Below, in pieces: positions 26,883 through 64,000 of a stretch of DNA of 64,000 nt. The stretch covers positions 2,646-66,645 of the forward strand of contig QEVM01000001.1 in NCBI GenBank assembly GCA_003576805.1, in the 5' to 3' direction. The stretch is from Pseudomonadota bacterium. GTDB taxonomy: Bacteria > Myxococcota_A > UBA9160 > PR03. The notes beneath the pieces are model-generated. The model made no database searches and was not told the origin of the DNA. It saw nothing but the letters and a program-made list of their open reading frames with translations. Positions within the stretch are counted from its first letter, which is position 1; each line of letters opens with the position of its first letter. The position numbers and the translations under genes were made by a program.

Positions 26883-26884
26883 CC

Positions 26885-31207: not shown

Positions 31208-31242
31208 CCGAGGGGTGGTGAGAGTATATCGCGGTAGGGGCG

Positions 31243-36463: not shown

Positions 36464-36476
36464 TCGAGGAAGGTGC

Positions 36477-40701: not shown

Positions 40702-40719
40702 CCAGGCTTCCTCCTGGGC

Positions 40720-42030
40720 CTACGCCCTTCCACGGCTTCGGAATTCGAGATGGGCGTACTCTGCGCGCGCCTCGGCAAGCGCTCCCTCGACGCGGTCTGC
40801 AAGGGATCGCACACCCGTCCAGATCCACCGCTCCGGCGCGACCTCTTCGAGATCTCCGAGCGCCGCGAGGTCCTGCACCCATGCAGCTGCCTCGTCGTGC
40901 GCGATCACGAGACGGAACGTGCTGCCTCCGACCTTCCAGATCGGGTAGTGCGAGCGACCGCCCCACGCTAGGTCGAGAACGCGCATGGCTTCGCTCGTGT
41001 GCTCTTCGAGGACGGAGTAGATCGCGGGAATGCGCTCCGAGAAGATCTCGAGATCGCGCATCGCCATCCGCTTGGGATTTGTGAAGACGATCTCGTGGCT
41101 CGGGTACGAGATGTCCTCGTCCACGTCGAGCGCGAGCAGGCGCCGACTCGATTCGAGGTAGCGGAGCACGCCGCAGTGCTCGGGCGGCACACCGGCGAGG
41201 GAAGCGAGCGTCCCCGGTGTGACGAGTGAAGTCGTCGCCGGAAGCCACATGTCGCCCGTGATGAGATGACCGCGATCGACGCGCACGCAGAGATGACCGG
41301 GAATGTGGCCGTCGAAGCGCAGGAGCTCGATGCGGCCGTCGGCGAGCGAAACGACCTCGAGACCAGGATCGATCTCCTGGTCCACCCGGAGCGGCCCCTC
41401 GTCCATGCTGCCCCAGGGCGCACGATCGAAGTCGAGGCCCGAGTTGCGCATGAGCGCGAGGTAGTGATCGCGGATCTCGCCCGTGAGACGTTCTACATCG
41501 ACGTCGATCCCGCAGTCTCGGAAGAAGGGGATCCGAGTCCGCAGGAAGGACTCACGGCGCGCGACCAAGGGGAAAAGTTCGCTCGTGTAGCGGTGGGCAA
41601 CCGTGGTCGCGCCGCTCCCGAGCGCTTCGATGGCGGCGTGACCTCCCGCGTGATCGAAGTGCGCGTGCGTGTAGATCGCGATGATCGGTCGCTCGCCGAG
41701 ACTTCGGCCTTCCGCGCGCACGATCTCTTCGAGCGTTTCCGGAAAGATCTCGGGCGCCGTCGTCCTATAGGTCGAATCGACGACGAACAGGAAGTCGGGA
41801 AGCGAGACGATGTGGCAGGCGACCGAGAACGAGCTTGCGCCGATGGGAGTTCCGCCCTCACCAAAACGCTCCTGCAGGTAGCGCGAGGTCGGCGTGTCGA
41901 AACGGTCGAGGACCACCGCGAGGGGGCTCGGCATGCGGCCACCAGGGCCCGAGAAGGCACCCGACTCGGCCTCGATGCGATAAATGCGAAGACCGTCCCT
42001 GCTGCGTGCTGCCTCGCGCGATTGGATCAT
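40720..42030 (-). CDS. MBL-fold metallo-hydrolase with long C-terminal extension
   Basis: IYTHAHFDHAGG (HxHxDH), later GHIPGH and ..HEIVF.. ligand candidates. 436 aa. Confidence 0.8.
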   Translation of the reverse strand: MIQSREAARSRDGLRIYRIEAESGAFSGPGGRMPSPLAVVLDRFDTPTSRYLQERFGEGGTPIGASSFSVACHIVSLPDFLFVVDSTYRTTAPEIFPETLEEIVRAEGRSLGERPIIAIYTHAHFDHAGGHAAIEALGSGATTVAHRYTSELFPLVARRESFLRTRIPFFRDCGIDVDVERLTGEIRDHYLALMRNSGLDFDRAPWGSMDEGPLRVDQEIDPGLEVVSLADGRIELLRFDGHIPGHLCVRVDRGHLITGDMWLPATTSLVTPGTLASLAGVPPEHCGVLRYLESSRRLLALDVDEDISYPSHEIVFTNPKRMAMRDLEIFSERIPAIYSVLEEHTSEAMRVLDLAWGGRSHYPIWKVGGSTFRLVIAHDEAAAWVQDLAALGDLEEVAPERWIWTGVRSLADRVEGALAEARAEYAHLEFRSRGRA

Positions 42031-42665
42031 GTGGATTCATCCGGCAAGGCGACCTCAGCGGCGAGATCGGGCCACGCTTCCGGTCGCAGCACGCCGAAGA
42101 GCAGCACGCGCTTCACCTCGCGGGCTAGGCGCTCGGTGGCGCGTTCCATGGCCTCAGGAGTCTCGTGTGCGGCACGCGCGAGCAGTGGCCAGAGAATGCC
42201 GACGCTCATCAACACGTAGCCAAGCATTTCCACATCGACACCGGGCTGCGCTTTCGCGTTGCTGGTGATCCGCCGCAGCTCGCCGAGGTATTGCTCCCAG
42301 GCATCGCGGGGAAGCGGATTTGCCGAGATGAGCTGATGGAGAGTGAGTTGCGTGACTTCGGGGTGCTCGACGAAGAACCGCGCCATGTGGTCGATCCGTT
42401 CGCCGATCGGCATCGGTGCGACGAGCATGCGAGCCACGTCCTGAGCCAGGTCCGCAAACACGGCGGCGACGAGCTCGTCGCGCGTTCGGAAGTGCTGATA
42501 GGCCGTCGTCCGGTTGAGCGTCGCCCGGTGCGCCACCTCTGAGACGGTGACGGCTGCGGGGCCTCGCTCCGCCATGAGCTCGCGTGCGGTGCGCAGTAGG
42601 CGCTCGCGACTGGACCGGTAGTCACGGCGTCGGATCCGGTCGGGCAGTTGCGTCGGCTTCGGCAT
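42027..42665 (-). CDS. TetR/AcrR family transcriptional regulator
   Basis: SRERLLRTARELMAERGPAAVTVSEVAHRATLNRTTAYQHFRTRDEL HTH. 4-nt overlap with the MBL gene. Confidence 0.85.
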   Translation of the reverse strand: MPKPTQLPDRIRRRDYRSSRERLLRTARELMAERGPAAVTVSEVAHRATLNRTTAYQHFRTRDELVAAVFADLAQDVARMLVAPMPIGERIDHMARFFVEHPEVTQLTLHQLISANPLPRDAWEQYLGELRRITSNAKAQPGVDVEMLGYVLMSVGILWPLLARAAHETPEAMERATERLAREVKRVLLFGVLRPEAWPDLAAEVALPDEST

Positions 42666-42700
42666 CAGAAGCCGAGCCTATCCAATTCTCACAATTAAAG

Positions 42701-42716
42701 TCAACATCGGTGTTGA
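42701..42716. promoter_or_regulatory. perfect inverted repeat TCAACA-TCGG-TGTTGA upstream of the TetR-MBL-P450 operon (candidate TetR operator)
   Basis: Seen directly in an AT-rich patch about 36 nt upstream of the TetR start codon. Confidence 0.4.
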
Positions 42717-42904
42717 ACTTCTAGAGCTGCCGACCCGCTGGCGATGGCCGCGTCCCCGAGCCACCGGATCTCCGGAGAACGGCCCACCGGCCAAAACAAA
42801 CGTACCGGCCGCCAGGAGAGCCTCCCGCGAGCCACCGAGCGGATTCTCGGAGTCAACTCAGCGGTGTGTAGGTGACCTGGGCCTGTTGCCCTAGACGGGC
42901 GTCG

Positions 42905-44860
42905 TCAGCGCTCGCGACCGCGGTCTTGCTCGTGCTCGACATCGTCGAGCGCCCAGGTGAGCGTTCGACGCTCGCGGCTTTCCTGCTCCGCGGTGACCTC
43001 GGCCCGCGCGCGGACGGCATGGCCCACCTCGAGGTCTCGGCGGTCCGTCGGGACTGCGGTCAACTCCTGCCCGGTGTCGAGTACGACGTAGCTCTTGCCG
43101 TCGTCGTCGACGGCGTAGCCGACGACGGGGCCTTGGTGGGCGCGGCCGGGCTCGGCCCTGGTCGTACTGCTCTCCTTGCCATGGATGCGCTCCAAATCAC
43201 GCAGCGTCGTCGGAACGCGCTCGCCGCGAATCATTCTTCCCTCGACCATCCGCTCCGCTCCTTTCTCGACTTCATAGGTTCTCTCGGCTCCTTCGTCGCG
43301 ACTTCGACGCAGGAGGCCCTCCCGCTCGAGCACAGGTCCGCGCGCGCGGACTGCGGCGCGCCATTGGCGGAAGAAGCCGCGGCGGTCGGGGGCCGGAGAG
43401 GGAAGGGCGCCGGTCTCTCGCACGGATCGAAGGGCATCGCGGTCGAGCAAGGTGGAGGCGGTCTCCGCGCGCTTCAAGTCGCGTAGCGGGCCATGCTCGA
43501 GGATCTCGGTCCGCATCGCGCGGTCTCCGGTGCGGGTGGCCGCGCCGCCGCGCAGTGTCACAACGGAGCCGGGCCGGAGGCGGCCCTCTCCGCGGGCCGT
43601 GACGATCTCCGTTGTCTGCGGGATCAGATGGCGACGGCCATCCGTGCCCTCGACGATCAGCAGCGGCTCGTCGCGGGACTCGTCGATCCCGCCTCCGGTC
43701 ACGCGGCCCGTGACCTCCACGCCCGCCAACATACGCGTCAGCACCACCGGCGCGTCCCGATCGGACACCAAGGTGCGCGAGCGCGCGAGGCTCTTCTGCA
43801 CGTCACCAGCGATCTGGATCTGCCGGAGCGCCGGGACAAGTTCGGGGGAGAGGTGCCAGCGTTTGGGTCCAAGCCGTTCTGCGAGGCCGATGCTTTCCAG
43901 ATACTGAAGCCTACGCAGGTCCTGCTGCCGACGCTCTTGGGCGACGGGTCGCGACGGCACCCCATCGTCGAAGGACACGGTCCCACCCGCGTCCGCTCGT
44001 CCGAGGAGCGAGCGGTCGATCTCCGTGAGCCGCGGCGCCGAGATCGCATTCTCGCGCGCTCGCCGGTACTCGTGCTCCTGCCGATGCCCGAGCGTCCGCG
44101 TCAGGAGCTCCTGACTGCGCGCCCGAATGCCCGTCCGGATGTAGTCGCGCGCGAGGAGGAGGGCCTTGCCTTCCTCGTCTACGCCGCGCACCACGATGTG
44201 TACGTGAGGGTGCGCCGTGTCGTGGTGATCGATCGCCACCCACTCGAGCCGGGTGCCAAGATCGTACTCGATCTGCGCCATCAGCTGCCGCGCGTGGCCG
44301 CTGAGATCGGCCCGCGCCCCTGCCTCGGGTGAGACGACGATCTTCCAGAGGCGCGCATCGCCGGCCTTCTGCCAAGCGTCGAGCCGCTCGGGAAGGTCGA
44401 GGTCATCGCGCTCCGCATCGAATCCCAGCCCCCGCGCGTCCTCGCGCTGTGCACCCGCGCGGCTCAGGTAACGGCCCTGTGCCCGCCAGGCTCCGCGTCC
44501 CTTATTCCGCGCGAACGACATCTTCACGAGGCTGCGCTGTTGGAGCGGTGACGACGTGGTCGTGAACGCGATGGGGCCTCGAGCGCGCCGGTGTCCGCGC
44601 TGATGCGCGCCGAGCTCCGCGGACAGGCGCTGCAGTGCCCGAGCTGACCGCCCTCCGCTCTCGCGCGCGATCCGCGAAGGTCGCAGACGCATCGAGGGAG
44701 CGTCCCGATCGGAGGTCGAGCGACTACCACTTCGTTGCGCGAGCGCCGGCGACGAGAGTTCGGGGCCACGCTTGTGCTCTCTGTGGTGGCCATGATCAAC
44801 CGCCTGGCCGGCATCCGATCGCGCCGAGCCAGGCTTCGCGGTCGGCGACCGCGGGCTCAC
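42905..44860 (-). CDS. conjugative relaxase (VirD2/MobP-like relaxase domain with large C-terminal extension)
   Basis: RLWKIVVSPE...WVAIDHHDTAHPHVHIVVRGVD histidine-triad motif. N-terminal MRLRPSRIARE block typical of ICE relaxases of this type. The ATG at 44860 overlaps the traF stop by 4 nt (alternative start 44692). Confidence 0.8.
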   Translation of the reverse strand: MSPRSPTAKPGSARSDAGQAVDHGHHREHKRGPELSSPALAQRSGSRSTSDRDAPSMRLRPSRIARESGGRSARALQRLSAELGAHQRGHRRARGPIAFTTTSSPLQQRSLVKMSFARNKGRGAWRAQGRYLSRAGAQREDARGLGFDAERDDLDLPERLDAWQKAGDARLWKIVVSPEAGARADLSGHARQLMAQIEYDLGTRLEWVAIDHHDTAHPHVHIVVRGVDEEGKALLLARDYIRTGIRARSQELLTRTLGHRQEHEYRRARENAISAPRLTEIDRSLLGRADAGGTVSFDDGVPSRPVAQERRQQDLRRLQYLESIGLAERLGPKRWHLSPELVPALRQIQIAGDVQKSLARSRTLVSDRDAPVVLTRMLAGVEVTGRVTGGGIDESRDEPLLIVEGTDGRRHLIPQTTEIVTARGEGRLRPGSVVTLRGGAATRTGDRAMRTEILEHGPLRDLKRAETASTLLDRDALRSVRETGALPSPAPDRRGFFRQWRAAVRARGPVLEREGLLRRSRDEGAERTYEVEKGAERMVEGRMIRGERVPTTLRDLERIHGKESSTTRAEPGRAHQGPVVGYAVDDDGKSYVVLDTGQELTAVPTDRRDLEVGHAVRARAEVTAEQESRERRTLTWALDDVEHEQDRGRER

Positions 44861-50596: not shown

Positions 50597-51418
50597 ATGA
50601 CGAGTCCCGATCGACTGCGCGAGGGCTTCGCCGTCGCGATCACGGGCGCGGCGGGCGGCATCGGCTCGGCGCTGGCGCGCGCGTTCGCGCGCCGCGGCGC
50701 GCGCGTCGCGCTGCTCGACCTGCCGGGGCCCGCGCTCGACGCGCTCGCCGCCGAGCTCCGCGCGAGCGGCGCCGACGCGCTCGCGCTTGCGTGCGACGTC
50801 ACCGACGCCGCGCAGACGCGCGCCGCGACGGCCGCCGCCGTCGCGCGCTTCGGCGGGCTCGACGTCGCGATCGCGAACGCCGGCATCACGCACATCGGCC
50901 GCTTCGCGGAGACCGACGCCGCCGTGCTGCGACGCGTGATGGACGTCAACTTCTTCGGCGCGGTGCACCTCGCGCAGGCCGCGGCGGAGCCGCTCGCGGC
51001 GCGGCGCGGCGTCCTCGTCGTGGTGTCGAGCGTGGCGGGCTTCGCGCCGCTCGCGGGGCGCGCCGGCTACGCGGCCAGCAAGCACGCGCTGCACGGGCTC
51101 TTCGCGTCGGTGCGCGTCGAGTGGCGGCGGCGCGGCGTGCAGGTGCTGATCGCGTGCCCGAGCTTCGTCGCGACCGACATCGGCAAGCGCGCGCTCGGGC
51201 CCGACGGCGGCGCGCCGCGCGACGCGCGCACGACGACCGGGAAGCCCGCGTCGCCGGACGCGGTCGCGGAGGCGATCGCGCGCGCGGCGATCGCGCGCCG
51301 CCGCTTCCTCGTGCTCTCGCCGGTCGGCGTCGCGTCCTGGTGGCTCGCGCGCCTGTGGCCCGCGGGCTACGAGCGCATCATGGAGCGACGGCTGCTGCGC
51401 GGCGAAGCCGCGCCGTAG
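50597..51418 (+). CDS. SDR family oxidoreductase
   Basis: AITGAAGGIG, VSSVAG...YAASKHAL. Confidence 0.85.
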   Translation: MTSPDRLREGFAVAITGAAGGIGSALARAFARRGARVALLDLPGPALDALAAELRASGADALALACDVTDAAQTRAATAAAVARFGGLDVAIANAGITHIGRFAETDAAVLRRVMDVNFFGAVHLAQAAAEPLAARRGVLVVVSSVAGFAPLAGRAGYAASKHALHGLFASVRVEWRRRGVQVLIACPSFVATDIGKRALGPDGGAPRDARTTTGKPASPDAVAEAIARAAIARRRFLVLSPVGVASWWLARLWPAGYERIMERRLLRGEAAP

Positions 51419-53024
51419 CCGCGAGCGCGCCGAGCGCGCACGCCGCGGCGAGCGCGCCGCTCGGCTCGGGCGCGGCGCGCGCGAAGCCGCCGCGCCCGGT
51501 GGGCCAGACGACGCGCGCCTGCGACGAGCCGGGGATCTCGTACGCGACGAGCCCCGTGTGCGCGGTGTTCACGATCACCTCGAGGTTCGCGTCGGCGTCG
51601 AGCTGCGCGAGCGTCGGCGCGGCGAGCGCGCCGTCCCAGCTCGCGGTCGAGCGCGGCAGCGCCGTGCGCGCGCGCTCCTGGCCGAGCGCGCCGGCGATCA
51701 CCAGGTCGCCGCTCGCGCCGCTCGCCTTGTCGGTCCACGTCGCGAACAGCACCTCGGCGGCGCCGTCGCCGTCGAGGTCCGCGACGACGGGCTCGGACGC
51801 GAAGCGCTTGCGGTCCGGGTCGGCGTCGTTGCTGACGTCGAACGGCCACGCGCCGTGCTCGGCGCCGTCGAGCCAGAAGGCGTGGACGCGGCCGTCGTAC
51901 GACGCGTACAGGATCTCCTTCGCGCCGTCGCCGTCGAGGTCGGCGAGCACCGGGTTCGCCTCGGCGGACTCGATCTCCTCGTAGTCGAGCGAGAGCGGCG
52001 CGGCGAACGCGTCGGGCGCGGGCGGCGTCGTCCAGTCGTGCGGCCCGGCGCGCCAGCGCGTGCGGTCGGCGGCGAACACCATCGGCACCTGGAAGAGCTG
52101 CGGGTAGCCGTCCGCGCGGCAGTCGTAGAAGCCGCCGACGATCACGATCTCGTTCGCACCGTCGCCGTCGAGGTCGCCGATCGCGGGCGCCGCGTCGGCG
52201 AAGTTCGGGCGCGGCTCGAGCGGCGGCCCGGCGGCGCAGTTGGCCCAGCCGCGCAGGTCCACGGCCGGGTCCCAGTGCACGCCGACCTGCGCCCAGGTCT
52301 TGCCCGCTCCGTAGATCGCGCTCGCGGCGAGCGGCGCGCCGTCGTCGCCGAACGCGGCGAGGTAGTGCACGTCGCTCGACGCCGCGATCTCGAGCTCGCC
52401 GTCGCCGTCGAGGTCGCCCGCCGCGAGGTTCTGGTTGTACGCGCCCGCGGCCCAGCCGGCGTCGCCGGAGGCGAGGCGCGGCCAGCCGGCGCGCACCGCG
52501 CCCGAGCCGTCCAACACGGTCCACGTGGGCCGCGCGCCCGAGCTGCTGCCGGACGTCGCAGCCGTCAGCAGCTCGTGCGCGCCGTCGCCGTCGAGGTCCG
52601 CGACCGCGAGCGTGCGCATCTCGCCCGTCGCGAACGGGCTCACCGGCCAGCCGGGCCGCAGCGCCCCCGACGCGTCGAGCACGGAGAGCGCGTCGTACTG
52701 CACGACCGCGATCTCGCGCGCGCCGTCGCCGTCGACGTCCGCGACTGCGACGGCGGGCCAGATGCGGCCGGCCGATCCCGCCGGCGGATACGTCCACGCC
52801 AGCGCGCCGGTGTCGCCGCGCACCGCGAGCAAGCGCGCGCCGCCGCCGAGCACGAGCGGCGCGCCGTCCGTCTCGACGAGCGCGGGCGACGCGTACCACG
52901 CGCGGTCGCAGTACGAGCTCGCGCAGCGCTGCCACTCCAGCACGGGCGCGGCGATCTCGGCGCGCGCGGAGGGCGCGGCGCACGAAACGAAGAGCGCGAT
53001 CCCGGCTGCGGCGAAGCTGCGCAT
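51378..53024 (-). CDS. FG-GAP/VCBS repeat protein with PEP-CTERM sorting signal
   Basis: Signal peptide, six D[LV]DGDGxxE[IL] loops spaced about 60-80 aa apart, C-terminal PEPSGALAAACALGALAATARLRR (PEP + TM + Arg cluster). Start at Met38 (53024) or Met31. Confidence 0.8.
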   Translation of the reverse strand: MRSFAAAGIALFVSCAAPSARAEIAAPVLEWQRCASSYCDRAWYASPALVETDGAPLVLGGGARLLAVRGDTGALAWTYPPAGSAGRIWPAVAVADVDGDGAREIAVVQYDALSVLDASGALRPGWPVSPFATGEMRTLAVADLDGDGAHELLTAATSGSSSGARPTWTVLDGSGAVRAGWPRLASGDAGWAAGAYNQNLAAGDLDGDGELEIAASSDVHYLAAFGDDGAPLAASAIYGAGKTWAQVGVHWDPAVDLRGWANCAAGPPLEPRPNFADAAPAIGDLDGDGANEIVIVGGFYDCRADGYPQLFQVPMVFAADRTRWRAGPHDWTTPPAPDAFAAPLSLDYEEIESAEANPVLADLDGDGAKEILYASYDGRVHAFWLDGAEHGAWPFDVSNDADPDRKRFASEPVVADLDGDGAAEVLFATWTDKASGASGDLVIAGALGQERARTALPRSTASWDGALAAPTLAQLDADANLEVIVNTAHTGLVAYEIPGSSQARVVWPTGRGGFARAAPEPSGALAAACALGALAATARLRRAAAVAP

Positions 53025-53135
53025 GCTGCGGTCCTCGGCACGCATCGGCCGCCGCGCCGTTCGGCATGACGGAACGCAGCGCGCGCGCAGCGGCGCGCCT
53101 TGTGGCGCGGCCCGGATCGCGGGTATGTTCCGCAT

Positions 53136-53963
53136 ATGAGCTCAGCGTTCCAGGATACGGAACAACCTGCAGAGGCGGCGCCGCTCGACGCCACCTCGAG
53201 CGTCGAGAAGGCGCTCGACGTGCTGTTCCACGTCGCGGGCGCGGGCAGCGCCGGCGTGTCCGAGATCGCGCGCGCGCTCGCGCTGCCGAAGTCGACGGCG
53301 CACCGGTTGCTGGCGGCGCTCGGCCGGCGCGGCCTCGTCGAGCGCGACGCCGCCGGCCGCTACAAGCCGGGACTGCGCATTCTCTCGCTCGGGCTCGGCG
53401 TGCTCGAGCGCGAGCCGGTCGTCGCGGCGGCCCGCCCCGTGCTCGAGGCGGAGGCCGAGGCGATCGGCGAGACGCTCTTCGTCACCGCGGCGCGCGCGGG
53501 CCGCATCGTGGTGCTCGACAAGGTCGAGGGCACCGGTTTTCTGCGCGCGGCGCCGCGCGTCGGCTCCACCGTGCCGGTGCACGCGACCGCCGTCGGCAAG
53601 CTGCAGCTCGCGTTCGCGCCGGAGGATGTCGCGTTGCCGGACGGCGCGTGGCCGCGCTTCACGCCGCGCACGCCGACGTCGCGCCGCGCGCTCGAGCGCG
53701 AGGTGGCGCGCGCGCGCCGCCGCGGCTGGGCGGAGAACCGCGAGGAGTGGATGCCGGGACTGGTCGTGGTGGCGGCGCCGGTCGTCGCGGCGGGGCGCAT
53801 GCAGGCGACGCTCGCGCTCGCGGCGCTGTCGGTGCGGCTGCCCGCGGCCAAGACGGAGCGCGTCGCCAAGCGGCTGGTCGCCGCCGCCGCGCGCATCGGC
53901 GCGCGGCTCGAAGGGACCGCAGGGCGCGAAGCGCCGGGCCCTCTGGTCGGGAGGACGGGATGA
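53136..53963 (+). CDS. IclR family transcriptional regulator
   Basis: SVEKALDVLFHVAGAGSAGVSEIARALALPKSTAHRLLAAL HTH plus IclR effector domain. Confidence 0.85.
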   Translation: MSSAFQDTEQPAEAAPLDATSSVEKALDVLFHVAGAGSAGVSEIARALALPKSTAHRLLAALGRRGLVERDAAGRYKPGLRILSLGLGVLEREPVVAAARPVLEAEAEAIGETLFVTAARAGRIVVLDKVEGTGFLRAAPRVGSTVPVHATAVGKLQLAFAPEDVALPDGAWPRFTPRTPTSRRALEREVARARRRGWAENREEWMPGLVVVAAPVVAAGRMQATLALAALSVRLPAAKTERVAKRLVAAAARIGARLEGTAGREAPGPLVGRTG

Positions 53964-55361: not shown

Positions 55362-56015
55362 CTAGGGCTGCAATCGCTCCGCGCGCCAGGCGCCGCCGCG
55401 AAAGCCGTCTCCGTCCGGTGTCAGCGCGCGCGACGAGGCGAGCCGGTCGTGCAGGCGTCCCGGCCGCGACGCCCACAGCTCGAGGCGCTCGATCCAGACG
55501 CGGTAGCCGCCCCAGTGCGGCGGCCGCGCGATCGCGCCGCCGGGCGCGCCGGCCGCGACGCGCTCGTAGCGCGCGACCAGCTCGGCGCGCGACGCGATCG
55601 GGCGGCTCTGCTCGCTGCTGGCGGCGGCGATCCGGCTCTCGGGATGGCGCGCCGCGAAGTAGGCGTCGGAGTCGGCCTCGGACGCGCGCGTGACCGGTCC
55701 TTCGAGGCGCGCCTGGCGCCCGAAGCGGTCCCAGTGGAAGACGAGCGCGGCGTGCGGGTGCGCGGCGAGCGCGCGGCCCTTGCGGCTGGTGCGGTCGGTG
55801 TAGAAGGTCGCGACGCCGGCGGCGGCGTCGAGCGCGCGCACCGCGACGATGCGCGCCGACGGCCGCCCGTCGGGATCGACGGTCGCGAGCGCCGCCGCCT
55901 CGGGCTCGTCGATCGCGCCGCAGGCGCGCGCTTCGTCGAGCCACGCGCGCAAGAAGGGCAGGGGATCGGCGGGCGGATCGCCGGCCAGCCACGCATCGCG
56001 CAGCGCGGGCTGCAT
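55362..56015 (-). CDS. pdxH: pyridoxamine 5'-phosphate oxidase
   Basis: LATVDPDGRPSARIV...RKGRALAAHPHAALVFHW...RQARLEG...WGGYRV...ELW...RLHDR...RLQP. Confidence 0.85.
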   Translation of the reverse strand: MQPALRDAWLAGDPPADPLPFLRAWLDEARACGAIDEPEAAALATVDPDGRPSARIVAVRALDAAAGVATFYTDRTSRKGRALAAHPHAALVFHWDRFGRQARLEGPVTRASEADSDAYFAARHPESRIAAASSEQSRPIASRAELVARYERVAAGAPGGAIARPPHWGGYRVWIERLELWASRPGRLHDRLASSRALTPDGDGFRGGAWRAERLQP

Positions 56016-57196
56016 CAGCCGCCCGAGGTCTCGTCCTCGGCCTCGCAGCCGGGCGGCGTGGGATCGTCGCGGTCGGCGAGCCAGCCCTCGGGCAGCACCA
56101 CGCGCTGGCGCCCGCCGCTCTTACCGCGCGGCACGCGCATCGCGGCGGGCGGGAACGGCTCGTCGTGCGTCACCTCGGCGAGCACGGCGCGCAGCGCGCC
56201 CAGCGTCTCGACGGCCATGATGCGCGGCCGCAGCTTCGATCCGCCGCGAAACCCCTTGGTGTACCAGCCGCCGTGCTGGCGGAACATGCGCACGCCGCGC
56301 CGCTCGCCGAACCAGCCGCACAGCAGCTCGGCGTGCTCGAGCATCAGCGCGATCACCGCCTGGAGCGACGGCGGGTCGGCGGGCTCGCGGCCCTCGAAGA
56401 CGTCGGCGAGGTCGCGGAACAGCCAGGGACGGCCGAGGCAGCCGCGGCCGACCACGACGCCGTCGCAGCCGGTCGCGCGCAGCATGCGCAGCGCGTCGTG
56501 CGCCTCCCAGACGTCGCCGTTGCCGAGCACCGGGATCGTGCGCACGGCGTCCTTGAGGCGCGCGATCGCGTCCCAGTCCGCGCTGCCGTCGTAGAGCTGC
56601 GCGGCGGTGCGCGCGTGCAGCGCGACGGCGGCGCAGCCCTCGTCCTCGGCGATGCGGCCGGCGTCGAGGAAGGTCTCGTGCGCGGCGTCGATGCCGATGC
56701 GGAACTTGATCGTGACCGGCACCGCGCCCGCGTTGCGCACCGCGGCCGCGACGATGCGCCGCAGCAGCGCGCGCTTCCACGGCAGCGCCGAGCCGCCGCC
56801 CCGGCGCGTCACCTTGCGCACCGGGCAGCCGAAGTTCATGTCGATGTGGTCGACGTGCCCTTCGCCGACCAGCCACGCGACCGCCTCGCCGAGCGAGACG
56901 GGATCGACGCCGTAGAGCTGCAGGCTGCGCGGCTTCTCGTCGGGCGCGAACGCCGCGAGGTGCAGCGTCTTCGCGTTGCCCTCGACGAGCCCGCGCGCCG
57001 TGATCATCTCCGAGACGTAGAGGCCCGCGCCGAAGCGCCGGCACAGCGTGCGGAACGGCACGTTGGTGACGCCCGCCATCGGCGCCAGCACGACCGGCGG
57101 CCACACCGCGAGCGGGCCGATCGCGATCGGGCGGAACTCGCCCGGCTGCGCGACCGGGACGTCGCGGTTCTGCTCGCTGCGGTAGACCGGGTTCAC
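56015..57196 (-). CDS. dus: tRNA-dihydrouridine synthase
   Basis: LAPMAGVTN.PFR, IDMNFGCPVRKV, LHARTAAQLYDGSADW, GNGDV. Confidence 0.85.
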   Translation of the reverse strand: MNPVYRSEQNRDVPVAQPGEFRPIAIGPLAVWPPVVLAPMAGVTNVPFRTLCRRFGAGLYVSEMITARGLVEGNAKTLHLAAFAPDEKPRSLQLYGVDPVSLGEAVAWLVGEGHVDHIDMNFGCPVRKVTRRGGGSALPWKRALLRRIVAAAVRNAGAVPVTIKFRIGIDAAHETFLDAGRIAEDEGCAAVALHARTAAQLYDGSADWDAIARLKDAVRTIPVLGNGDVWEAHDALRMLRATGCDGVVVGRGCLGRPWLFRDLADVFEGREPADPPSLQAVIALMLEHAELLCGWFGERRGVRMFRQHGGWYTKGFRGGSKLRPRIMAVETLGALRAVLAEVTHDEPFPPAAMRVPRGKSGGRQRVVLPEGWLADRDDPTPPGCEAEDETSGG

Positions 57197-58077
57197 GACG
57201 TCGAGCTGCGCGCCGGCTCCACGATGCTCTTCGCGAGATCGTCGAGCCGCGCGACGAGGCCGTCGCGGTCGCCCGCCACCACGAGCAGGATCACCTGATC
57301 GACGCCGGCGTCGCGGTAGCGGCGCACGGCGTCGAAGTCGACCGGCTGCATGTAGGGCGAGATGCTGACCTGGATCTCGGAGCGCGTGCGGCCCGCCTTC
57401 GCGAGGAAGCGGTCGAGGCGCGCGAGGTGCGACGGCACCGCGTCGGGGAGCAGGTTGAAGCCGTACCAGCCCTGGCCGAGGTCCGCGACGCGGCGCAGCG
57501 CGGCGTCACTCTCGCCGCCGAAGTGGATCGGCGGGTGCGGCTTCTGCACCGGCTTCGGGTTCTGGCGCAGCGGCTCGAACGAGTAGAACGTGCCCTGATG
57601 GGACGACACGGGCTGCGTCCAGAGCGCCTGCATCGCGGCGAGGTAGTCGCGCGTGCGCGCCGCGCGCTGCTCGAAGGGAACGTCGCAGGCGCGGAACTCC
57701 TCGGCGAGCCAGCCGACGCCGACGCCGAAGTCGAAGCGCCCTTTCGAGAGCCAGTCGACGGCCGCCACCTCTTTGGCGGTGTAGACGGGGTTGCGCTGCG
57801 GCACGAGACAGATGCCGGTGCCGAGCCGAATGCGCGACGTGCGCGCCGCGAGGAAGGCGAGCGCGGTGAACGGCTCCAGCATCCCGCTCTCGCCGCCCGC
57901 CGGGATCTTGCCGTCGGCCGCGTACGGATACTGCGAGGCGTACTCGTCGAAGAGCACGACGTGCTCCGCGACCCAGAGCGAGTGGAAGCCGCGCTCCTCG
58001 GCGGCGGTGCCGAGCGCGTTCAGGTAATCGGGCGTCGAGAACGGGTTGGCGAGCGCCGCGAAGATGCCGATCTGCAT
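57193..58077 (-). CDS. LLM-class (luciferase-like) F420-dependent oxidoreductase
   Basis: FHSLWVAEHV, RIRLGTGICLVPQRNP, GRFDFGVGVGW, PPIHFGG. 4-nt overlap with dus. Confidence 0.85.
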   Translation of the reverse strand: MQIGIFAALANPFSTPDYLNALGTAAEERGFHSLWVAEHVVLFDEYASQYPYAADGKIPAGGESGMLEPFTALAFLAARTSRIRLGTGICLVPQRNPVYTAKEVAAVDWLSKGRFDFGVGVGWLAEEFRACDVPFEQRAARTRDYLAAMQALWTQPVSSHQGTFYSFEPLRQNPKPVQKPHPPIHFGGESDAALRRVADLGQGWYGFNLLPDAVPSHLARLDRFLAKAGRTRSEIQVSISPYMQPVDFDAVRRYRDAGVDQVILLVVAGDRDGLVARLDDLAKSIVEPARSSTS

Positions 58078-58146: not shown

Positions 58147-61100
58147 TCAGCGCTGCGCCGACTTCGCGGGCTTCTTCTTGGCGGGAGCGGGCTTCTTCGC
58201 GGCCTTGGCGGCGCCGCCCGACCAGTACGCGTCGAACGAGCCGCAGTCGAGCGAGCCCAGCGACGGCGGCGCGGGCGTGCCCGCCTTCACGGCGACCGGC
58301 GCGGTGCCCTGGAAGGCGCGGTCGATCTTGCCGTCGAAGTTCGCGTCCTCGTCCTGGCGCACGACGGCGTCGCCCGAGAAGGTCTGGATCACGTCGGGGC
58401 GCCGGTCGCCGTTGGTGTCGGCCTCGAGGCGCACGCGCACGCCGTTCTCGTAGACCTCGCGCTGGTCGGGCTTGCCGTTGCCGTCGGTGTCGAGGATCGC
58501 CTGCGTCACCTGACCGCCCGCGACGAGCGCGCGCGCGTCGAGCCGGCCGTCGCCGTTGGTGTCCAGACACTGCGCCGTGACGCTGCCGTCGGCGGCGAGG
58601 AAGAGCTTCTTGTTGGGCCGCGCGGCGCCGCCCTCGATCAGCTCCTGCGTCGCCGCGACGCCGGCTTCGAAGCGCGTCACCACGTCGGCCTTGCCGTCGC
58701 CGTCGGTGTCGCGCGCCTCGCGCACCGGCTGACCGCCCTCGAACGCGACCCAGCTGTCGACGCGGCCGTCGCCGTCGGCGTCGCGCGCCTCTTCCGCCGA
58801 CGCCGGCTTGCCGTCGACGAACGTCGCGACCGCCTCGGGCTGGCCGTCGCCGTCGCGGTCCTCGCGCTTCTCGACGACCTGGCCGTTGGCGTCGAGCACG
58901 ACCCAGGTGTCGACCCTGCCGTCGCCGTTCGCGTCGAGCTCCTGGAGCTGGCTGCCGTCCTTCTGGGCGCGGCTCGTCGCGTCCATCGTGCCGTCGAAGT
59001 CGGTGTCCTGCTGCGTCTGGAGGAGCTGGTCGCCGCGGAACGTCGCGACGATGTCGGCGCGCCCGTCGGCGTTGCTGTCCTTCTCGGTGCGCACGCGCAC
59101 GCCGTTCTCGAAGAGCGTCGCGAGCTCGCGCTTGCCGTCGCCGTCGCCGTCCTCCTCGATGCGGGCGGGCTTGCCGGCGGCGTCGAAGACGGTGAGCACG
59201 TCGGGCTTGCCGTCGCCGTCGCGGTCCTCGCTCTGGCGCGCCTTGACGCCGTTCTCGTACTCGACGACGACGTCCGCCTTGCCGTCGCCGTTGGTGTCGG
59301 CCTCGGTGCGCTGCGGCCGGCCGGCGGAGTCGAGCTTCGTGGTGGTCGAGCCCTCGAAGCGCCCGTCGCCGTCGCGGTCCGACTCTTCCTTGACGAGCAC
59401 GCCGCCCTGATAGACGCGCGCCACGTCGGCGCGGCCGTCGCCGTTGGTGTCGACCTCCTCGCGCGCCGGCTTGCCGTCGCGGTCGAACACGACCCACGCG
59501 TCCGGCCGGCCGTCGCCGTCGGTGTCGCGCTCCTGCTTCGCCTGCTTGCCGTCCTGGAAGGTGAGCACCGTGTCGAACGCGCCCTTGCCCTGCGTGTCGC
59601 GCTCCTGGCGCACGGGCTGGCCGTTCTCGAAGACGGTCGCGACGTCGAGCTTGCCGTCGCCGTTGGTGTCGCGCTCCTCGCGCAGCGGGACGCCGGCGCG
59701 GTACGTGGTGCGCACGTCGACCTTGCCGTCGTGGTCGGTGTCCTTCTCGTCGGCGGTGACGTTGCCGTCGGCGTCGAGCGTGCCCTTCACGTCGGGCTTG
59801 CCGTCGAAGTCGGTGTCCTCGGAGAAGCGCGCGGGCTTGCCGCCGGCGAACTCGACGAGGCGGTCCGGCTTGCCGTCGGCGTTCTTGTCCTCCTCGACCT
59901 TCACCGGCTGGCCCGACGCGTCGCTGGTGCGCCAGGTGTCGACGCGGCCGTCGCGGTTGGTGTCGGTGAGGAGGCGCGTCTCCTTGCCCGTCGCCGGATC
60001 GAGCGTGACCCAGGTGTCGACCTGGCCGTCGCGGTCCCGATCCTGCTCCTGCTTCTCCATCTTCTCGTTCGGGTCGAAGAAGTTCCACAGGTCGATGCGG
60101 CCGTCGCCGTCCTCGTCGATCTCGACGCGCTGGAGCCGTCCCTCGCCGCGGATCTCGACGCGCGAAGGCTGGCCGGACTTGCCGACACTCGTGCGCTTCT
60201 GGAGCTCGCCGTCGCGGTACTCGCCGGCGGTCTCGAAGCTGCCGTCGCCGTCGGCGTCCACCTGCTCGCGCACGAGCTTCTCGTTCGCGCCGAACTCGTA
60301 GACGGCGTCGATCTTGCCGTCGCCGTTGCGGTCCTCTTCCTGCTTCGCCTTCTTGCCGTTCGCGAAGGTGACGAAGGTGTCGGGCTTGCCGTCGCCGTTG
60401 GTGTCGGCCTTCGAGCGCGCCGGCTCGCCGCCCGCGTACTCCGTGACGAGGTCCGGCTTGCCGTCGCCGTTCTCGTCCTTCTCCTCGCGCACCTTCTGCC
60501 CGCCCGAGAACTCGCGCACGAGGTCGAAGCGGCCGTCGCCGTTGGTGTCGTGGCGCTCGCGCGCGACCTTGCCCTGCGCGTCGAACTCGGCGACGAACTC
60601 CGGCTTGCCGTCGCGGTTGGCGTCGCGCACCTGCTCCTGCTCGACGCCGCCCTTGAACTCGCTGATGGTGTCGGTGCGGCCGTCGCCGTCGCTGTCGGCC
60701 TCGCGCGCGACCGGCTTGCCGCCCTCGTAGCGCGTGACGAGGTCGAACTTGCCGTCGCCGTTCGTGTCCTCCTCGACGCGCACCTTGACGCCGTCCTGGT
60801 ACACGATCGCGGCGTCGATCTTGCCGTCGTCGTCGGTGTCCTGCTCCTCGCGCAGCGGGCGGCCCTCGGCGTCGTACTCGGCGCGCGCGTCGGGCTTGCC
60901 GTCGCCGTCGTGGTCCTCTTCGGCGCGCTGGCGCTTGCCGTTCTGGTAGAACACCCAGCGGTCGATCTTGCCGTCGCCGTTGGTGTCGGCCTCTTCCTTC
61001 GCGGGCTGGCCCGCGGCGTCGAACACGAGCACGGCCTCGGGCTTGCCGTCGCGGTTCTTGTCCGCCTTCTGCACGGCCGGCTGGCCGCCCTGGAACTCGA

Positions 61101-61425
61101 TCGTCTCGTCGGGCTTGCCGTCGCCGTCGGTGTCGCGCTCCTGCTTCACGGTCTGGCCCGCGGCGTCGTACGTCACGACCGTGTCCATGCGGCCGTCGAA
61201 GTCCGCGTCCTTCTCGGCGCGCGCCGGCTTGCCGCCGCGGTAGGTCACGATCTCGTCGAACTTGCAGTCCTTGTTGTTGTCGGCGCGCTTCTCGGCGAGC
61301 TCTTCCTTGTCGTCGTAGAGCAGCTCGACGGGCGCGCACTTCTTGGCCGACTGCGCGTGCGCGGGCGCAGCGGCGGCCAGGCCCAGAGCAGCCAGGGCGA
61401 CGGCGAGGAGCGGAGCTCGGTGCAA
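58147..61425 (-). CDS. secreted protein of ~39 tandem DxDxDG calcium-loop/hairpin repeats with basic K/A/P tail (family not recognised)
   Basis: In-frame TTG at 61425 (GGAAGG 8 nt upstream) gives signal peptide MHRAPLLAVALAALGLAAAAPAHA. Then come repeated units such as DTNGDGKFDLVTRYEGGKPVAREA. Ends AAKAAKKPAPAKKKPAKSAQR. Confidence 0.8.
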   Translation of the reverse strand: MHRAPLLAVALAALGLAAAAPAHAQSAKKCAPVELLYDDKEELAEKRADNNKDCKFDEIVTYRGGKPARAEKDADFDGRMDTVVTYDAAGQTVKQERDTDGDGKPDETIEFQGGQPAVQKADKNRDGKPEAVLVFDAAGQPAKEEADTNGDGKIDRWVFYQNGKRQRAEEDHDGDGKPDARAEYDAEGRPLREEQDTDDDGKIDAAIVYQDGVKVRVEEDTNGDGKFDLVTRYEGGKPVAREADSDGDGRTDTISEFKGGVEQEQVRDANRDGKPEFVAEFDAQGKVARERHDTNGDGRFDLVREFSGGQKVREEKDENGDGKPDLVTEYAGGEPARSKADTNGDGKPDTFVTFANGKKAKQEEDRNGDGKIDAVYEFGANEKLVREQVDADGDGSFETAGEYRDGELQKRTSVGKSGQPSRVEIRGEGRLQRVEIDEDGDGRIDLWNFFDPNEKMEKQEQDRDRDGQVDTWVTLDPATGKETRLLTDTNRDGRVDTWRTSDASGQPVKVEEDKNADGKPDRLVEFAGGKPARFSEDTDFDGKPDVKGTLDADGNVTADEKDTDHDGKVDVRTTYRAGVPLREERDTNGDGKLDVATVFENGQPVRQERDTQGKGAFDTVLTFQDGKQAKQERDTDGDGRPDAWVVFDRDGKPAREEVDTNGDGRADVARVYQGGVLVKEESDRDGDGRFEGSTTTKLDSAGRPQRTEADTNGDGKADVVVEYENGVKARQSEDRDGDGKPDVLTVFDAAGKPARIEEDGDGDGKRELATLFENGVRVRTEKDSNADGRADIVATFRGDQLLQTQQDTDFDGTMDATSRAQKDGSQLQELDANGDGRVDTWVVLDANGQVVEKREDRDGDGQPEAVATFVDGKPASAEEARDADGDGRVDSWVAFEGGQPVREARDTDGDGKADVVTRFEAGVAATQELIEGGAARPNKKLFLAADGSVTAQCLDTNGDGRLDARALVAGGQVTQAILDTDGNGKPDQREVYENGVRVRLEADTNGDRRPDVIQTFSGDAVVRQDEDANFDGKIDRAFQGTAPVAVKAGTPAPPSLGSLDCGSFDAYWSGGAAKAAKKPAPAKKKPAKSAQR
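58303..61281 (-). repeat. intragenic tandem repeat array, unit about 72-75 nt (about 39 units)
   Basis: Recurrent plus-strand cores such as cttgccgtcgccgttggtgtc at a regular spacing of about 72 nt. Protein-level period is 24-25 aa. Confidence 0.75.
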
Positions 61426-61427
61426 CT

Positions 61428-62654
61428 TCAGCCTTCCGGGGTGAGCGAGAAGGTGCCGGTGAGCCGGCGGTTGGCGAGGCAGCGCACGCGGTCCGACATC
61501 GGCGGGAAGGGCGACGCGGCGCGCAGCGCCTCGACGACGCTGTTGCCGACGGCCGAGTTGGAGGCGTTCACGAGCTTCACGCTCGTCGCGGAGCCGGAGA
61601 CGTCGAGCTGCCAGCTGAGCGTCGCGCGCGCGGATTTCTGCATCGAGGGCGGCGCGACCCAGCGCGCCAGCGTGCGCTGGCGGATCTGCTCCTGATAGGC
61701 GCGCACCTCGGGGCGGCTGTCGCAGTCGGGCGTGTCGCCGCCGAGCGTGGTGCCGTCGCCGCCGGGGCCGCGCAGGTTGCCGGTGCCGACGCGCGTGTCG
61801 ACGCTCGCGAGCCGCTCGCCGTCCGGGCTGCCGAGCACGTCGCGGCCGGTGACCGCGCCTTCGCGCACCGACGAGCCGTCGCCGCTGCGCACGACCGTGC
61901 CCGCGCCGACGCTGTTGCCGCCGGTGGCGATCGCCTTGGGCCCGACCGACGCGCCCACCGCGCCGCCCGCGGCGTTGACGGGACCGCGCACCGCGGGCGC
62001 CGCGACCGAGCCGACGTCGATCTGCCGCGGCGCCGACGGCGCCGCCACGTTGGTCACGGCCTGCACGGTCTCGACCGCGACCGACGACGTGCGGATCTCG
62101 CGCGGCGCGGAGACCGCGGATTGCAGCTGCTTCATGTCGAGCGTCGGCGCGGCGACGTTCGGCGACGCCTGCTGGATCACCGACGGGTTCACGACCTGCG
62201 GCTGCACCGCCTGCGCGGACGGCGCGAAGTTCACGCTGCGCCGCTCGGCGAGCGCCTTCGGCGCCGCAGCGGGCTTGGGCGCCGGCGTCGGTGCGGGCCT
62301 CGGCGCGGGCGCCGGCGGCTTCTCCACGACCTTCTCGATCTTCTCGACCTTCGGCGCGGGCGGCGGCGGGGGCGGCGGCGGCGCCTCCTTCACCAGCTCG
62401 ATCGGAATCACCTCTTCCTCTGGCTCGACCGGCACGACCCACGCGATCGCGACGCACAGCAGCAGGACCGCGACGTGCAGCCCGCCCGAGACGAGCGCGG
62501 CCAGCGTGCGGCGGCGGCGGCCCTCCGGCTCGGGCAGCTCGATCCCCGGGAAGCGGCGCGTCGGCGCGCCGCGCGCGGCCGCGCCGAGCCGCAGCGTGCG
62601 CAGCGGCGTGGGGCGCGCCTCGCGGCGCCGGAATCCGGGAGAGGAAGAGCTCAT
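61428..62654 (-). CDS. TonB/TolA-like energy-transducer protein
   Basis: Cytoplasmic N-terminus, single TM LAALVSGGLHVAVLLLCVAIAWVV, Pro-rich spacer EAPPPPPPPPAPKVEKIEKVVEKPPAPAPRPAPTPAPKP, C-terminal TonB_C-like domain (..ATLSWQLDVSGSATSVKLVNASNSAVGNSVVEALRAASPFPP). Start at Met52. Confidence 0.75.
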   Translation of the reverse strand: MSSSSPGFRRREARPTPLRTLRLGAAARGAPTRRFPGIELPEPEGRRRRTLAALVSGGLHVAVLLLCVAIAWVVPVEPEEEVIPIELVKEAPPPPPPPPAPKVEKIEKVVEKPPAPAPRPAPTPAPKPAAAPKALAERRSVNFAPSAQAVQPQVVNPSVIQQASPNVAAPTLDMKQLQSAVSAPREIRTSSVAVETVQAVTNVAAPSAPRQIDVGSVAAPAVRGPVNAAGGAVGASVGPKAIATGGNSVGAGTVVRSGDGSSVREGAVTGRDVLGSPDGERLASVDTRVGTGNLRGPGGDGTTLGGDTPDCDSRPEVRAYQEQIRQRTLARWVAPPSMQKSARATLSWQLDVSGSATSVKLVNASNSAVGNSVVEALRAASPFPPMSDRVRCLANRRLTGTFSLTPEG

Positions 62655-63105
62655 GCAGATCGTTCTCGGCTGCTCCGCAGAGTCGCCGCTGGAGCCGGCG
62701 GCGTCGAGTTGCGCGCGTCCTGCACCGGGACGGATGCGCGCTGCACGCTCACGCGTTCCGTCCGGCGCGAGATCGTTGGATGCGCGAGCTGCGCGAATGC
62801 TTCGCATCCGGCGCCGTCGAAGGACGCTCGCGAGGCGGCGTGCGCAACGCGCTGGAAGCCGCTCCGCAAGTTGCGAACGAGGCGCGCACGCGAGCTCTCG
62901 GAAATTCGAACGCAGGCTCGAACGAAGTCCGCGAAGTGCTCGCCATGTCTCGCGAATCCATCATGCGCGCGAATCGTAGACTGCGCGGCGTCGGCGTGTC
63001 AACGCGCGCGTGATCGTGTTTGAATCGCGCTCTCGCGTTCGGATAAGATGAGCCGCTCGCTGGCCGGGGAAAGACATCCCGCGCGGCGATCGAACACCGC
63101 TGGAG

Positions 63106-63804
63106 GTGCCGAAGTTGGACGTCGCAACGATCGCCCGAATGATCCAGGATGGCTGGCTCACGACGGCGCCGCTCGCGCTCTGCTCGATCCTGGTGCTCGC
63201 GATCATGATCGAACGCTGGCTGCGCTACCGCGGCATCGAGAAGCAGACGCGCGAGCTCACGCGCGGCGTGGTCGAGGCGCTCGGCAAGCGCGACCTCTCC
63301 ACCGCGAACGCGCTGTGCCAGACCTCGAAGACGCCGATCGCGCAGATCTTCCGCGAAGGACTCGCGTGGAAGAACATCGCGCTCGAGGACCTCGAGCGGA
63401 TCCTCGCGACGTCGCGACAGGAGACGGTGTCGGAGCTGCGGCGCGGCGTGTGGGTGATCGGCACGATCGGCTCGCTCGCGCCCTTCATCGGCCTGTTCGG
63501 CACCGTGGTCGGCATCATGAAGGCGTTCCACCAGATCGCGGTCGAGGGCTCGGGCGGCTTCGAGGTGGTGGCGGCCGGCATCTCGGAGGCGCTGATCGCG
63601 ACCGCGGTCGGCCTCGGCGTCGCGATCATCGCGCTCGCCTTCTACAACTACCTGAACGTGAAGATCGGCCTGATCGGCAACGGCTTCGCGCGCGCCTGCG
63701 AGCGCCTGGTCCAGGCGCTGCTCTACGTCGAGTCGTCCGGCCCCGCGCCGGACGTGCGCGGCAACGCACCGGAGGTCGGCCGTGGCCATCCACTCCCTGC
63801 CTAG
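63106..63804 (+). CDS. exbB: MotA/TolQ/ExbB proton-channel protein
   Basis: Three TM segments, LGTIGSLAPFIGLFGTVVGIMKAF, ISEALIATAVGL. TTG at 63115 (8 nt after GGAGG) is an alternative start. Confidence 0.85.
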   Translation: MPKLDVATIARMIQDGWLTTAPLALCSILVLAIMIERWLRYRGIEKQTRELTRGVVEALGKRDLSTANALCQTSKTPIAQIFREGLAWKNIALEDLERILATSRQETVSELRRGVWVIGTIGSLAPFIGLFGTVVGIMKAFHQIAVEGSGGFEVVAAGISEALIATAVGLGVAIIALAFYNYLNVKIGLIGNGFARACERLVQALLYVESSGPAPDVRGNAPEVGRGHPLPA

Positions 63805-64000
63805 CGCCGACGAGTCGACCGGCGACGACATCGTCGCCGAGATCAACATCACGCCGCTGACCGACATCTTCCTCGTCCTGCTGATCATCTTCATGGTCAC
63901 CACGTCGGTGATCTCGAGCCAGGGCAAGGAGGTCGACCTGCCGAGCTCGGCGGTCGCGTCGCAGACACCGGCCGGCGTCACCGTCACGCTCTCCGCCGAC
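63782..64000 (+). CDS. exbD: ExbD/TolR biopolymer transport protein (3'-partial at window end)
   Basis: GTG after GGAGG. EINITPLTDIFLVLLIIFMVTTS is the ExbD/TolR signature. Overlaps the exbB stop. Confidence 0.75.
   Translation, partial: MAIHSLPSADESTGDDIVAEINITPLTDIFLVLLIIFMVTTSVISSQGKEVDLPSSAVASQTPAGVTVTLSAD

Follow-up and report, generated by a model that had tools for sequence, protein, structure and literature searches.

The 64,000-nucleotide (nt) window analysed here (contig QEVM01000001.1, positions 2,646 to 66,645, assembly GCA_003576805.1) raises the question of what is made by a gene whose 1092-amino-acid (aa) product consists almost wholly of short units carrying a putative calcium loop. 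All coordinates below are positions within this window. The gene occupies 58147..61425 on the minus strand, from a TTG start at 61425 to a stop codon at 58147..58149, as given by the open reading frame (ORF) call and by orthologues. Because it almost always lies beside TonB/ExbB/ExbD genes, its product is probably an undescribed periplasmic part of the TonB/ExbB/ExbD envelope motor. The reading that we favour, to which as a whole we give a probability of roughly one half, is that of a calcium-stiffened periplasmic beta-ribbon that serves as an accessory of Ton-like motors. Within it, we would place the structural description and the functional linkage above that value, and a specific scaffold role below it.

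The linkage begins with the adjacent gene. A TolA/TonB-like force transducer is encoded at 61428..62654 (minus), and its stop codon, a TGA, lies 2 nt before the TTG of the repeat gene, which is itself preceded by a GGAAGG ribosome-binding site. The likely start of the transducer gene is the ATG at 62654, and the longest ORF extends to 62807. The transducer has a transmembrane helix with an SxxxH motif, a Pro-rich spacer and a TonB_2 C-terminal domain; its best NCBIfam match, to the TolA C-terminus (tolA_full), is below threshold and slightly above that to tonB_Cterm. Divergent from this pair lie exbB (63052..63804, plus), recognised by a profile match to the MotA/TolQ/ExbB proton channel, and the N-terminus of exbD (63782..64000, plus), which runs off the end of the window and was assigned by comparison by eye with the ExbD of locus L092. 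Upstream of the transducer and repeat genes, at 62973..63002 (minus), is a sigma-70-like promoter match, TTGACA-18-TACGAT, a match to the consensus only, found once against 0.0 from shuffled sequences.

The same association is found in two families of the repeat protein. In the long family, from Myxococcota, a tonB-like gene followed by the repeat gene, both divergent from exbB-exbD, is seen at all six loci that retain upstream sequence (the window, L007, L008, L009, the P0001 contig and L092), and the translations of P0003 and P0011 also have a TonB-like C-terminus immediately upstream. A shorter family, of about 540-630 aa, is found in Desulfobacter, Desulfobacula, Desulfotignum and Desulfovibrio. 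Here the repeat gene stands first in a rep-exbB-exbD-tonB order at each of the four exbB-linked loci that were individually inspected (L001, L010, L011 and L093), and these operons often lie beside genes for a TonB-dependent receptor and for uptake. Scanning metagenomes with an alignment of this ~600-aa family gave 80 loci at 30-48% identity, 66 of them with at least 700 nt of downstream sequence. An exbB gene follows on the same strand within 520 nt in 64 of these 66: within 400 nt in 58, overlapping the end of the repeat gene in three, and within 520 nt in another three. It is 4.2 kb away in one of the two remaining loci and absent from the other.

Segments matching the repeat are also carried by TonB-dependent receptors themselves (P0024, P0031 and P0035, with Plug and barrel domains). 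In P0024, the one receptor inspected, the TonB box (...LEAVTVTERPA...) is directly preceded by about seven units that extend the N-terminus, a periplasmic position.

An additional gene without a motor function, held at a fixed operon position by exbB, exbD and tonB-like genes, has parallels in known systems. In tol-pal, tolB is encoded after tolA and TolB is a beta-propeller, and the TonB2 system of Vibrio includes the membrane protein TtpC. The Myxococcota repeat gene directly follows a TolA/TonB-like gene, as tolB follows tolA. However, the repeat protein has no sequence or fold relation to TolB or TtpC, and no Pal-like partner was seen. No paper on the repeat family, or on such a Ton accessory protein, was found in the literature searched, nor does one appear in the 2025 MBE survey of periplasmic force transducers.

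Several further features were seen at these loci. The transducer of the window has an Ala/Val/Ser/Gly-rich segment of ~180 aa between its Pro-rich spacer and its C-terminal domain. In the 398-aa protein P0305, units of the ~600-aa family run straight into a TonB transmembrane helix and TonB_C domain, with neither exbB nor exbD intervening. P0305 could be a true fusion of repeat and TonB, or it could reflect a deletion or an error of assembly. A GldG-like ABC-2 transporter cluster (ABC_transp_aux) adjoins exbD at L008 (351-3411), where ABC_tran and an ABC-2 permease are also present, and on the P0001 contig; at L009 (102-1654) only ABC ATPase and ABC-2 permease genes stand beside exbD. P0030 combines hairpin units with DUF4340, which we take to be a family usually found with GldG-like systems.

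The anatomy of the protein is highly regular. An initial annotation, made from the sequence alone, had described a signal peptide, a long series of 24-residue units, four Cys near the two ends and a basic tail, and each of these is present. The Sec signal peptide covers residues 1-24 (61354..61425, minus), with cleavage at AHA/QS in the translation and no lipobox; the predicted local distance difference test (pLDDT) score is below 50 for residues 1-28. A degenerate N-terminal cap unit follows (residues 25-48; 61282..61353, minus), with strands at 33-37 and 43-48 in the AlphaFold2 model. The array proper, defined by regular expression, unit alignment and AlphaFold2 models, spans residues 49-1050 (58276..61281, minus) and comprises 41 hairpin units of 24-27 aa each, with the consensus D-T-[ND]-G-D-G-[KR]-[P/hydrophobic]-D-x-[VW]-x-x-[FY]-(D)-x-x-G-x-P-x-R-x-E-x. 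It is closed by a C-terminal cap (residues 1051-1071; 58213..58275, minus), recognised by orthologue comparison, with a conserved ...LDCGxF..[FY]W motif that includes Cys1061. The Lys/Pro/Ala-rich tail AAKAAKKPAPAKKKPAKSAQR (58150..58212, minus) is predicted to be disordered and is specific to this genome, being absent from the orthologues. The four Cys are residues 30, 54, 953 and 1061.

The count of 41 units is made up of 36 full loops, three degenerate loops and two loop-less units. The full loops, found with the expression D.[DN].[DN]G..[DE], are spaced 24-27 aa apart, and each gap of 47-49 aa between them contains one degenerate or loop-less unit. The degenerate loops are DNNKDC at residue 49 (unit 1), DTQGKG at 610 and DTNGDR at 1003. 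Loop-less unit 16 (residues 414-436; 60118..60186, minus) has the same position in orthologues and falls in a region of lower pLDDT; loop-less unit 37 (...RPNKKLFL...QCL; residues 930-954; 58564..58638, minus) is conserved in orthologues and holds Cys953. The initial annotation had recognised the same array but had arrived at 39 units, reading units 15 and 35 as carrying large insertions; these insertions are the two loop-less units, and its longer unit 26 is unit 27 (27 aa) in the present numbering.

This design is shared by orthologues. Three were found in genome collections, in metagenome-assembled genomes of Myxococcota and 'Deltaproteobacteria', at 43-64% identity, and a further one is P0001, of 1145 aa. 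The two full-length orthologues that were aligned, L008 and P0001, keep the unit order, both loop-less units, the end motifs and the Cys residues. Each has one extra unit with an extra Cys pair, giving 41-42 units across orthologues. Mean identity is 45% between orthologous units and 35% between paralogous units, which falls to 23% outside the loop. As judged from these values, the array is an ancient, fixed design and not a recently expanded or concerted repeat, since orthologous units resemble each other more closely than paralogous ones.

The loop between hairpins has ligands at positions 1, 3, 5 and 9 and Gly at position 6, which is the DxDxDGxxD hairpin loop of integrin-type FG-GAP repeats. 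The earlier description of an EF-hand/FG-GAP ligand loop therefore holds for the integrin/FG-GAP version and not for the helix-loop-helix EF-hand, because the AlphaFold2 model is all-beta. The EF-hand_5 profile scores 14.6 bits against a cut-off of 25.9 and the AlphaFold2 models contain no helices in the array. Matches of a two-unit profile to polcalcin and other EF-hands in the PDB are confined to the loop, at E >= 0.01.

In most units each loop would be expected to chelate one Ca2+. Strict DxDxDGxx[DE] loops number 36 in the window protein and 18-19 in L008 and P0001, of about 42 units; many loops of these orthologues have Thr at position 3 or are substituted at position 6. This would make the predicted Ca2+ stoichiometry differ about two-fold between orthologues. 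With so few strict loops kept in the orthologues, Ca2+ is not needed at every site, and Ca2+ capacity is unlikely to be the selected trait. From these alignments, the conserved trait appears to be the geometry of the array rather than its Ca2+ capacity. The earlier proposal of a high-capacity Ca2+ solenoid or matrix scaffold had overlooked the strongest lead, namely the tight TonB/ExbB/ExbD linkage.

The same comparison bears on a second possibility, namely that the protein is a periplasmic cation buffer or metal sequestrant which, through its acidic loops, serves TonB-dependent uptake of metals or cobalamin. The mature protein (116 kDa) has a net charge of -85 and an isoelectric point (pI) of 4.5, and its 36 acidic loops show weak similarity to lanmodulin and EF-hands. 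The short-family operons examined are near TonB-dependent receptor genes, and their other neighbours include Peripla_BP_2/FecCD/ABC transporter, TP_methylase and DUF4198 genes. This proximity is nevertheless weak evidence, because exbB-exbD-tonB operons commonly sit beside uptake loci, and metal-uptake genes are not near the Myxococcota loci. Half of the strict loops are lost in orthologues while the number and order of units are kept, which speaks for conservation of scaffold geometry and not of binding capacity; a role as cation buffer is therefore unlikely.

The Cys residues offer a further view of the loops. Pairs of Cys lie one unit (24 residues) apart at C30/C54 in the window protein, 889/913 in L008 and 927/951 in P0001, and the downstream Cys of each pair replaces the Gly at loop position 6 (DNNKDC, DTRADC and DTHGDC, respectively). 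The placement of a Cys at this position, one unit from its partner, suggests that a disulfide between neighbouring loop regions may substitute for Ca2+ at the Cys-bearing loops. Together with the signal peptide, these conserved pairs would fit an oxidising periplasm.

Assignment to a family, which the initial annotation had considered impossible, can be made at the profile level, where two Pfam models exceed their cut-offs and one NCBIfam model falls just short. FG-GAP_3 (PF13517) scores 64.3 bits against a gathering cut-off of 26.9, over 10 stretches, the best of which covers the full 61-position model and three loops. DUF6802 (PF20615), a family without known function, scores 46.3 bits against a gathering cut-off of 27, over nine stretches; it is also passed by L008 (27.6 bits) and P0005 (36.7 bits) and is the Pfam model that matches most consistently across the repeat family. 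No paper on DUF6802 was found in the literature searched. The NCBIfam equivalog model NF050087, 'Lsa25.6 family adhesin', matches at E = 6e-41 with 140.2 bits against a cut-off of 150.

The FG-GAP_3 score, together with many weaker homology matches that are FG-GAP proteins, could be taken to mean that the protein is an ordinary FG-GAP/VCBS protein in which pairs of units form the four-stranded blades of several beta-propellers. The two share the ligands of the DxDxDGxxD loop, and the FG-GAP_3 match is driven by that loop; in the orthologues it falls to 15.2 bits, below the cut-off, in P0001, and is absent from L008. The unit provides two strands in 24 aa, in contrast to a four-stranded blade of ~60 aa. 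The neighbouring FG-GAP protein of the window (ORF 51378..53141), which matches FG-GAP/FG-GAP_3 and is genuine as first annotated, has a period of about 60 aa. In both AlphaFold2 models each unit is one beta-hairpin, in a uniform array without two alternating unit types and without a propeller. Foldseek ranks DDB1-type propellers at E ~1e-8, far below the ~1e-22 of YD shells. These results bear out the earlier argument that a 24-aa unit holds a loop and one hairpin and is too short for an FG-GAP blade. On the AlphaFold2 and Foldseek results the propeller was rejected, and we regard it as highly improbable.

The Lsa25.6 model raises a different alternative, that of a surface or secreted adhesin binding polymers outside the cell, with the Ton genes either energising its export or unrelated to it. 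YD repeats, to which the protein is related as described below, are often extracellular. The match to NF050087 consists of 13 partial stretches, and Lsa25.6 is reported to be a fibrinogen-binding surface protein (PMC8657130). The unit is common to Lsa25.6, DUF6802 and the repeat protein, and relatives of the latter score 31-112 bits against the Lsa25.6 model. However, only model positions 57-148, about four units, are matched, and the score is below the cut-off; the model has ~196 positions and describes a surface adhesin, whereas the repeat protein has 41 units and is tied to Ton genes. No lipobox, outer-membrane barrel or RTX-type motif was seen, and no secretion-related domain was returned from Pfam or NCBIfam. 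The near-universal linkage to TonB/ExbBD operons and the units on the periplasmic side of a TonB-dependent receptor also speak against an adhesin, which we consider quite unlikely.

There is also a relationship by sequence to YD/RHS repeats. A phmmer search with the repeat protein finds P0017 at E = 4e-35, and P0017 is a bona fide RHS_repeat (E = 1.3e-34, 118 bits) and YD_repeat_2x (61 bits) protein whose units read DxDGDGxxD...TYxYDAAGN. In the BLASTP register, '...VVTY--DAAGQ...DTDGDGKPD' of the repeat protein is placed over '...IKTYAYDAAGN...DRNGDGQLD' of P0017. An [FYL]-D-x-x-G core is present in 10 of the 41 units, aligned to the YDAAG of P0017, and the other units have a shorter turn. 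The initial annotation was correct that the YxYD motif is absent (none by regular expression), but its dismissal of YD/RHS repeats was premature. On the basis of the P0017 alignment, the [FYL]-D-x-x-G cores and the Foldseek ranking, we interpret the unit as an abbreviated YD/RHS-type hairpin, with a calcium loop in place of the turn that leads to the next hairpin. With YD/RHS proteins that have DxDGDG loops (P0017 and P0094) it shares one hairpin per unit and a DxDGDGxxD loop in the turn between hairpins, and its best Foldseek matches are the Rhs, teneurin and Tc shells. It differs in being ~2 residues shorter (TY--DAAG versus TYAYDAAG), in having lost the YD core in most units, in its very regular period of 24-25 aa, and in lacking the Rhs core protease motif, a toxin and a type VI secretion system context.

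Other repeat classes are excluded by their motifs, in part as previously argued. The GGxGxD motif of RTX proteins is absent (no match by regular expression), and four Cys in 1092 residues do not give the Cys pattern of TSP3 repeats. The DPxGL autoprotease of Rhs cores is also absent (no match to DP.G[LIVM]), only about 40 residues follow the array, and no other Pfam domain is present. The ~600-aa family (P0004, P0007, P0009, P0122 and others) is labelled 'antitoxin component YwqK of YwqJK toxin-antitoxin module' by JGI, and relatives are named 'hypothetical protein' or 'antitoxin YwqK' in all sources. The YwqK label looks like a repeat-driven mis-annotation, because it has no MORN_2 profile support: the repeat protein has no MORN_2 match at E <= 10, and among relatives only P0012 does, at E = 0.022 and below the cut-off.

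Solved structures do not match by sequence: nothing significant was found for the whole protein (OspA, E = 0.07; lanmodulin, E = 0.12), and the two-unit profile gave only the EF-hand loop matches noted above. AlphaFold2 was run on the whole protein with a 13-sequence alignment and on a half-model (residues 30-536) with an alignment that included shifted windows; MAFFT put overlapping windows back at their true positions. The whole chain has a mean pLDDT of 80.9 and a predicted TM-score (pTM) of 0.38, and residues 30-536 have 92.3 and 0.64, respectively. In both models each unit is a hairpin of two 5-7-residue strands followed by a nine-residue loop, which gives ~82 strands and zero helices in the array. 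Foldseek places Rhs cores, teneurin YD shells and Tc toxin BC cocoons at the top for both the whole model and the half-model, with E down to 4.5e-22.

This ranking could indicate a closed shell or cocoon of the Rhs/teneurin YD type, of about 84 strands, enclosing a periplasmic cargo or ligand. The best matches, to Rhs cores, span about 1080 aligned columns; the ~1000-aa array equals Rhs cores in length (targets of 1020-1050); the number of units is fixed at 41-42 across orthologues; and the sequence link to YD repeats points the same way. However, the TM-scores to Rhs/YD shells are 0.07-0.18, with a root-mean-square deviation (rmsd) of 37-53 Å, even for the confident half-model, so the predicted curvature is unlike that of a cocoon. 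The strands have only 5-7 residues; there is no DPxGL autoprotease motif, toxin domain or plug; and the ~600-aa family stands in the same gene context with about half the number of units. A closed shell is therefore improbable. The best global superposition of the half-model is instead with the engineered extended single-layer sheet of Borrelia OspA (PDB 2fkj), at a TM-score of 0.37 normalised to the target. OspA resembles the repeat protein in its charged hairpins without a conventional hydrophobic core and in weak sequence matches, but the TM-score is below 0.5, and OspA is a lipoprotein without Ca loops or repeat periodicity.

These features can be combined in a model of the accessory beta-ribbon. 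The repeat protein would be exported by Sec as a very acidic chain, the mature part of which would form one continuous run of about 42 beta-hairpins, with a nine-residue DxDxDGxxD loop joining successive hairpins. Periplasmic Ca2+, bound at most of these loops, would lock neighbouring hairpins into a stiff beta-ribbon of fixed length, and disulfides may cap both of its ends. In the periplasm, such a ribbon could act as a dedicated partner of the TolA/TonB-like transducer and the ExbB/ExbD proton motor, in physical contact with the Ton complex, and together with the transducer it may serve as scaffold, as spacer or as a surface for docking close to the TonB box. The ribbon length would be set by the number of hairpins, about 42 for the long family and around half that number for the short family. 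As a flat meander this would correspond to ~40 nm and slightly more than 20 nm, respectively, figures calculated from 4.8 Å per strand and not from the model.

Several observations weigh against this model. The relative P0006 is not beside Ton genes, and gene adjacency in general shows linkage, not mechanism. Among named families the nearest is Lsa25.6, and its description is that of an adhesin at the cell surface, not of a periplasmic protein. The orthologues retain only 18-19 strict Ca loops of about 42. Neither RHS_repeat (PF05593) nor TIGR01643/YD_repeat_2x is listed for the repeat protein even at E <= 10. The pTM of the whole chain is 0.38, no solved structure gives a TM-score above 0.37, and statements about shape rest on these TM and rmsd values.

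To our knowledge, TonB/ExbB/ExbD and Tol are the only routes by which energy of the inner membrane reaches the outer membrane in diderm bacteria. How the transducer crosses the periplasm and works there is still debated. A near-obligate linkage to the motor in two phyla, together with units on the TonB-box side of receptors, makes the repeat protein a concrete candidate for a missing periplasmic component. A bolder version would make it an unrecognised fourth structural component of the widespread TonB/TolA-ExbB-ExbD machines of Myxococcota and Desulfobacterota, a Ca2+-rigid ribbon of fixed length that spans or measures the periplasm and guides the transducer or passes force to the outer membrane; this we regard as doubtful. 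Should the protein be only a structural repeat protein of the periplasm or surface, the result would be a useful re-annotation of modest importance. DUF6802, which gives no function, and in part the Lsa25.6 model already capture the unit itself. What is new, in that the literature searched does not describe it, is the architecture of 41 units and its near-obligate coupling to Ton motors in two phyla. The analysis also brings together one repeat class, in which a YD-type hairpin is combined with an integrin-type calcium loop and which has no match by sequence among solved structures; annotation has scattered it among 'hypothetical protein', 'FG-GAP-like', 'YwqK antitoxin', DUF6802 and 'Lsa25.6 adhesin'.

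The repeat protein family is not a rare one. Cluster representatives matching it number 114 at E <= 1e-30 and 1936 at E <= 1e-10. Proteins of 2000-4800 aa (P0134, P0230, P0197, P0242 and others) contain up to 16 separate stretches of the unit, and the hairpin and Ca-loop repeat is therefore used there too. P0014 has HEAT repeats fused to hairpin units. In its genome (L005:2096-6334), exbB-exbD is followed by a 1412-aa protein composed wholly of HEAT-like repeats, and this protein may represent another type of repeat accessory to a Ton motor.

That the repeat gene is a real one, and not an artefact of genes on the opposite strand, follows from three lines of evidence and agrees with the initial annotation. 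The stop-to-stop frame that holds it (58147..62748) has a GC content by codon position of 0.80/0.52/0.87, typical of a real gene in a genome of 73% GC; none of the long ORFs in other frames passed the codon-position GC filter; and the reading frame is kept in orthologues at 43-64% identity.

Downstream of the repeat gene on the same strand, after a gap of 70 bp in which no terminator-like site was found on that strand, lie genes for a luciferase-like oxidoreductase and Dus (57193..58077 and 56015..57196, minus). The pair is syntenic in L009; PGI and pentose-phosphate genes take its place in L008 and L092, and L007 stops short of this region. Because other genes replace them in L008 and L092, the luciferase-like and Dus genes are probably not functionally linked to the repeat gene. 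Rfam and tRNA scans of the whole window gave no match. The GC content of the window falls from ~73% to 65% over 24001..44000 and to 60% at 6001..8000, and these tracts may be acquired or otherwise atypical regions.

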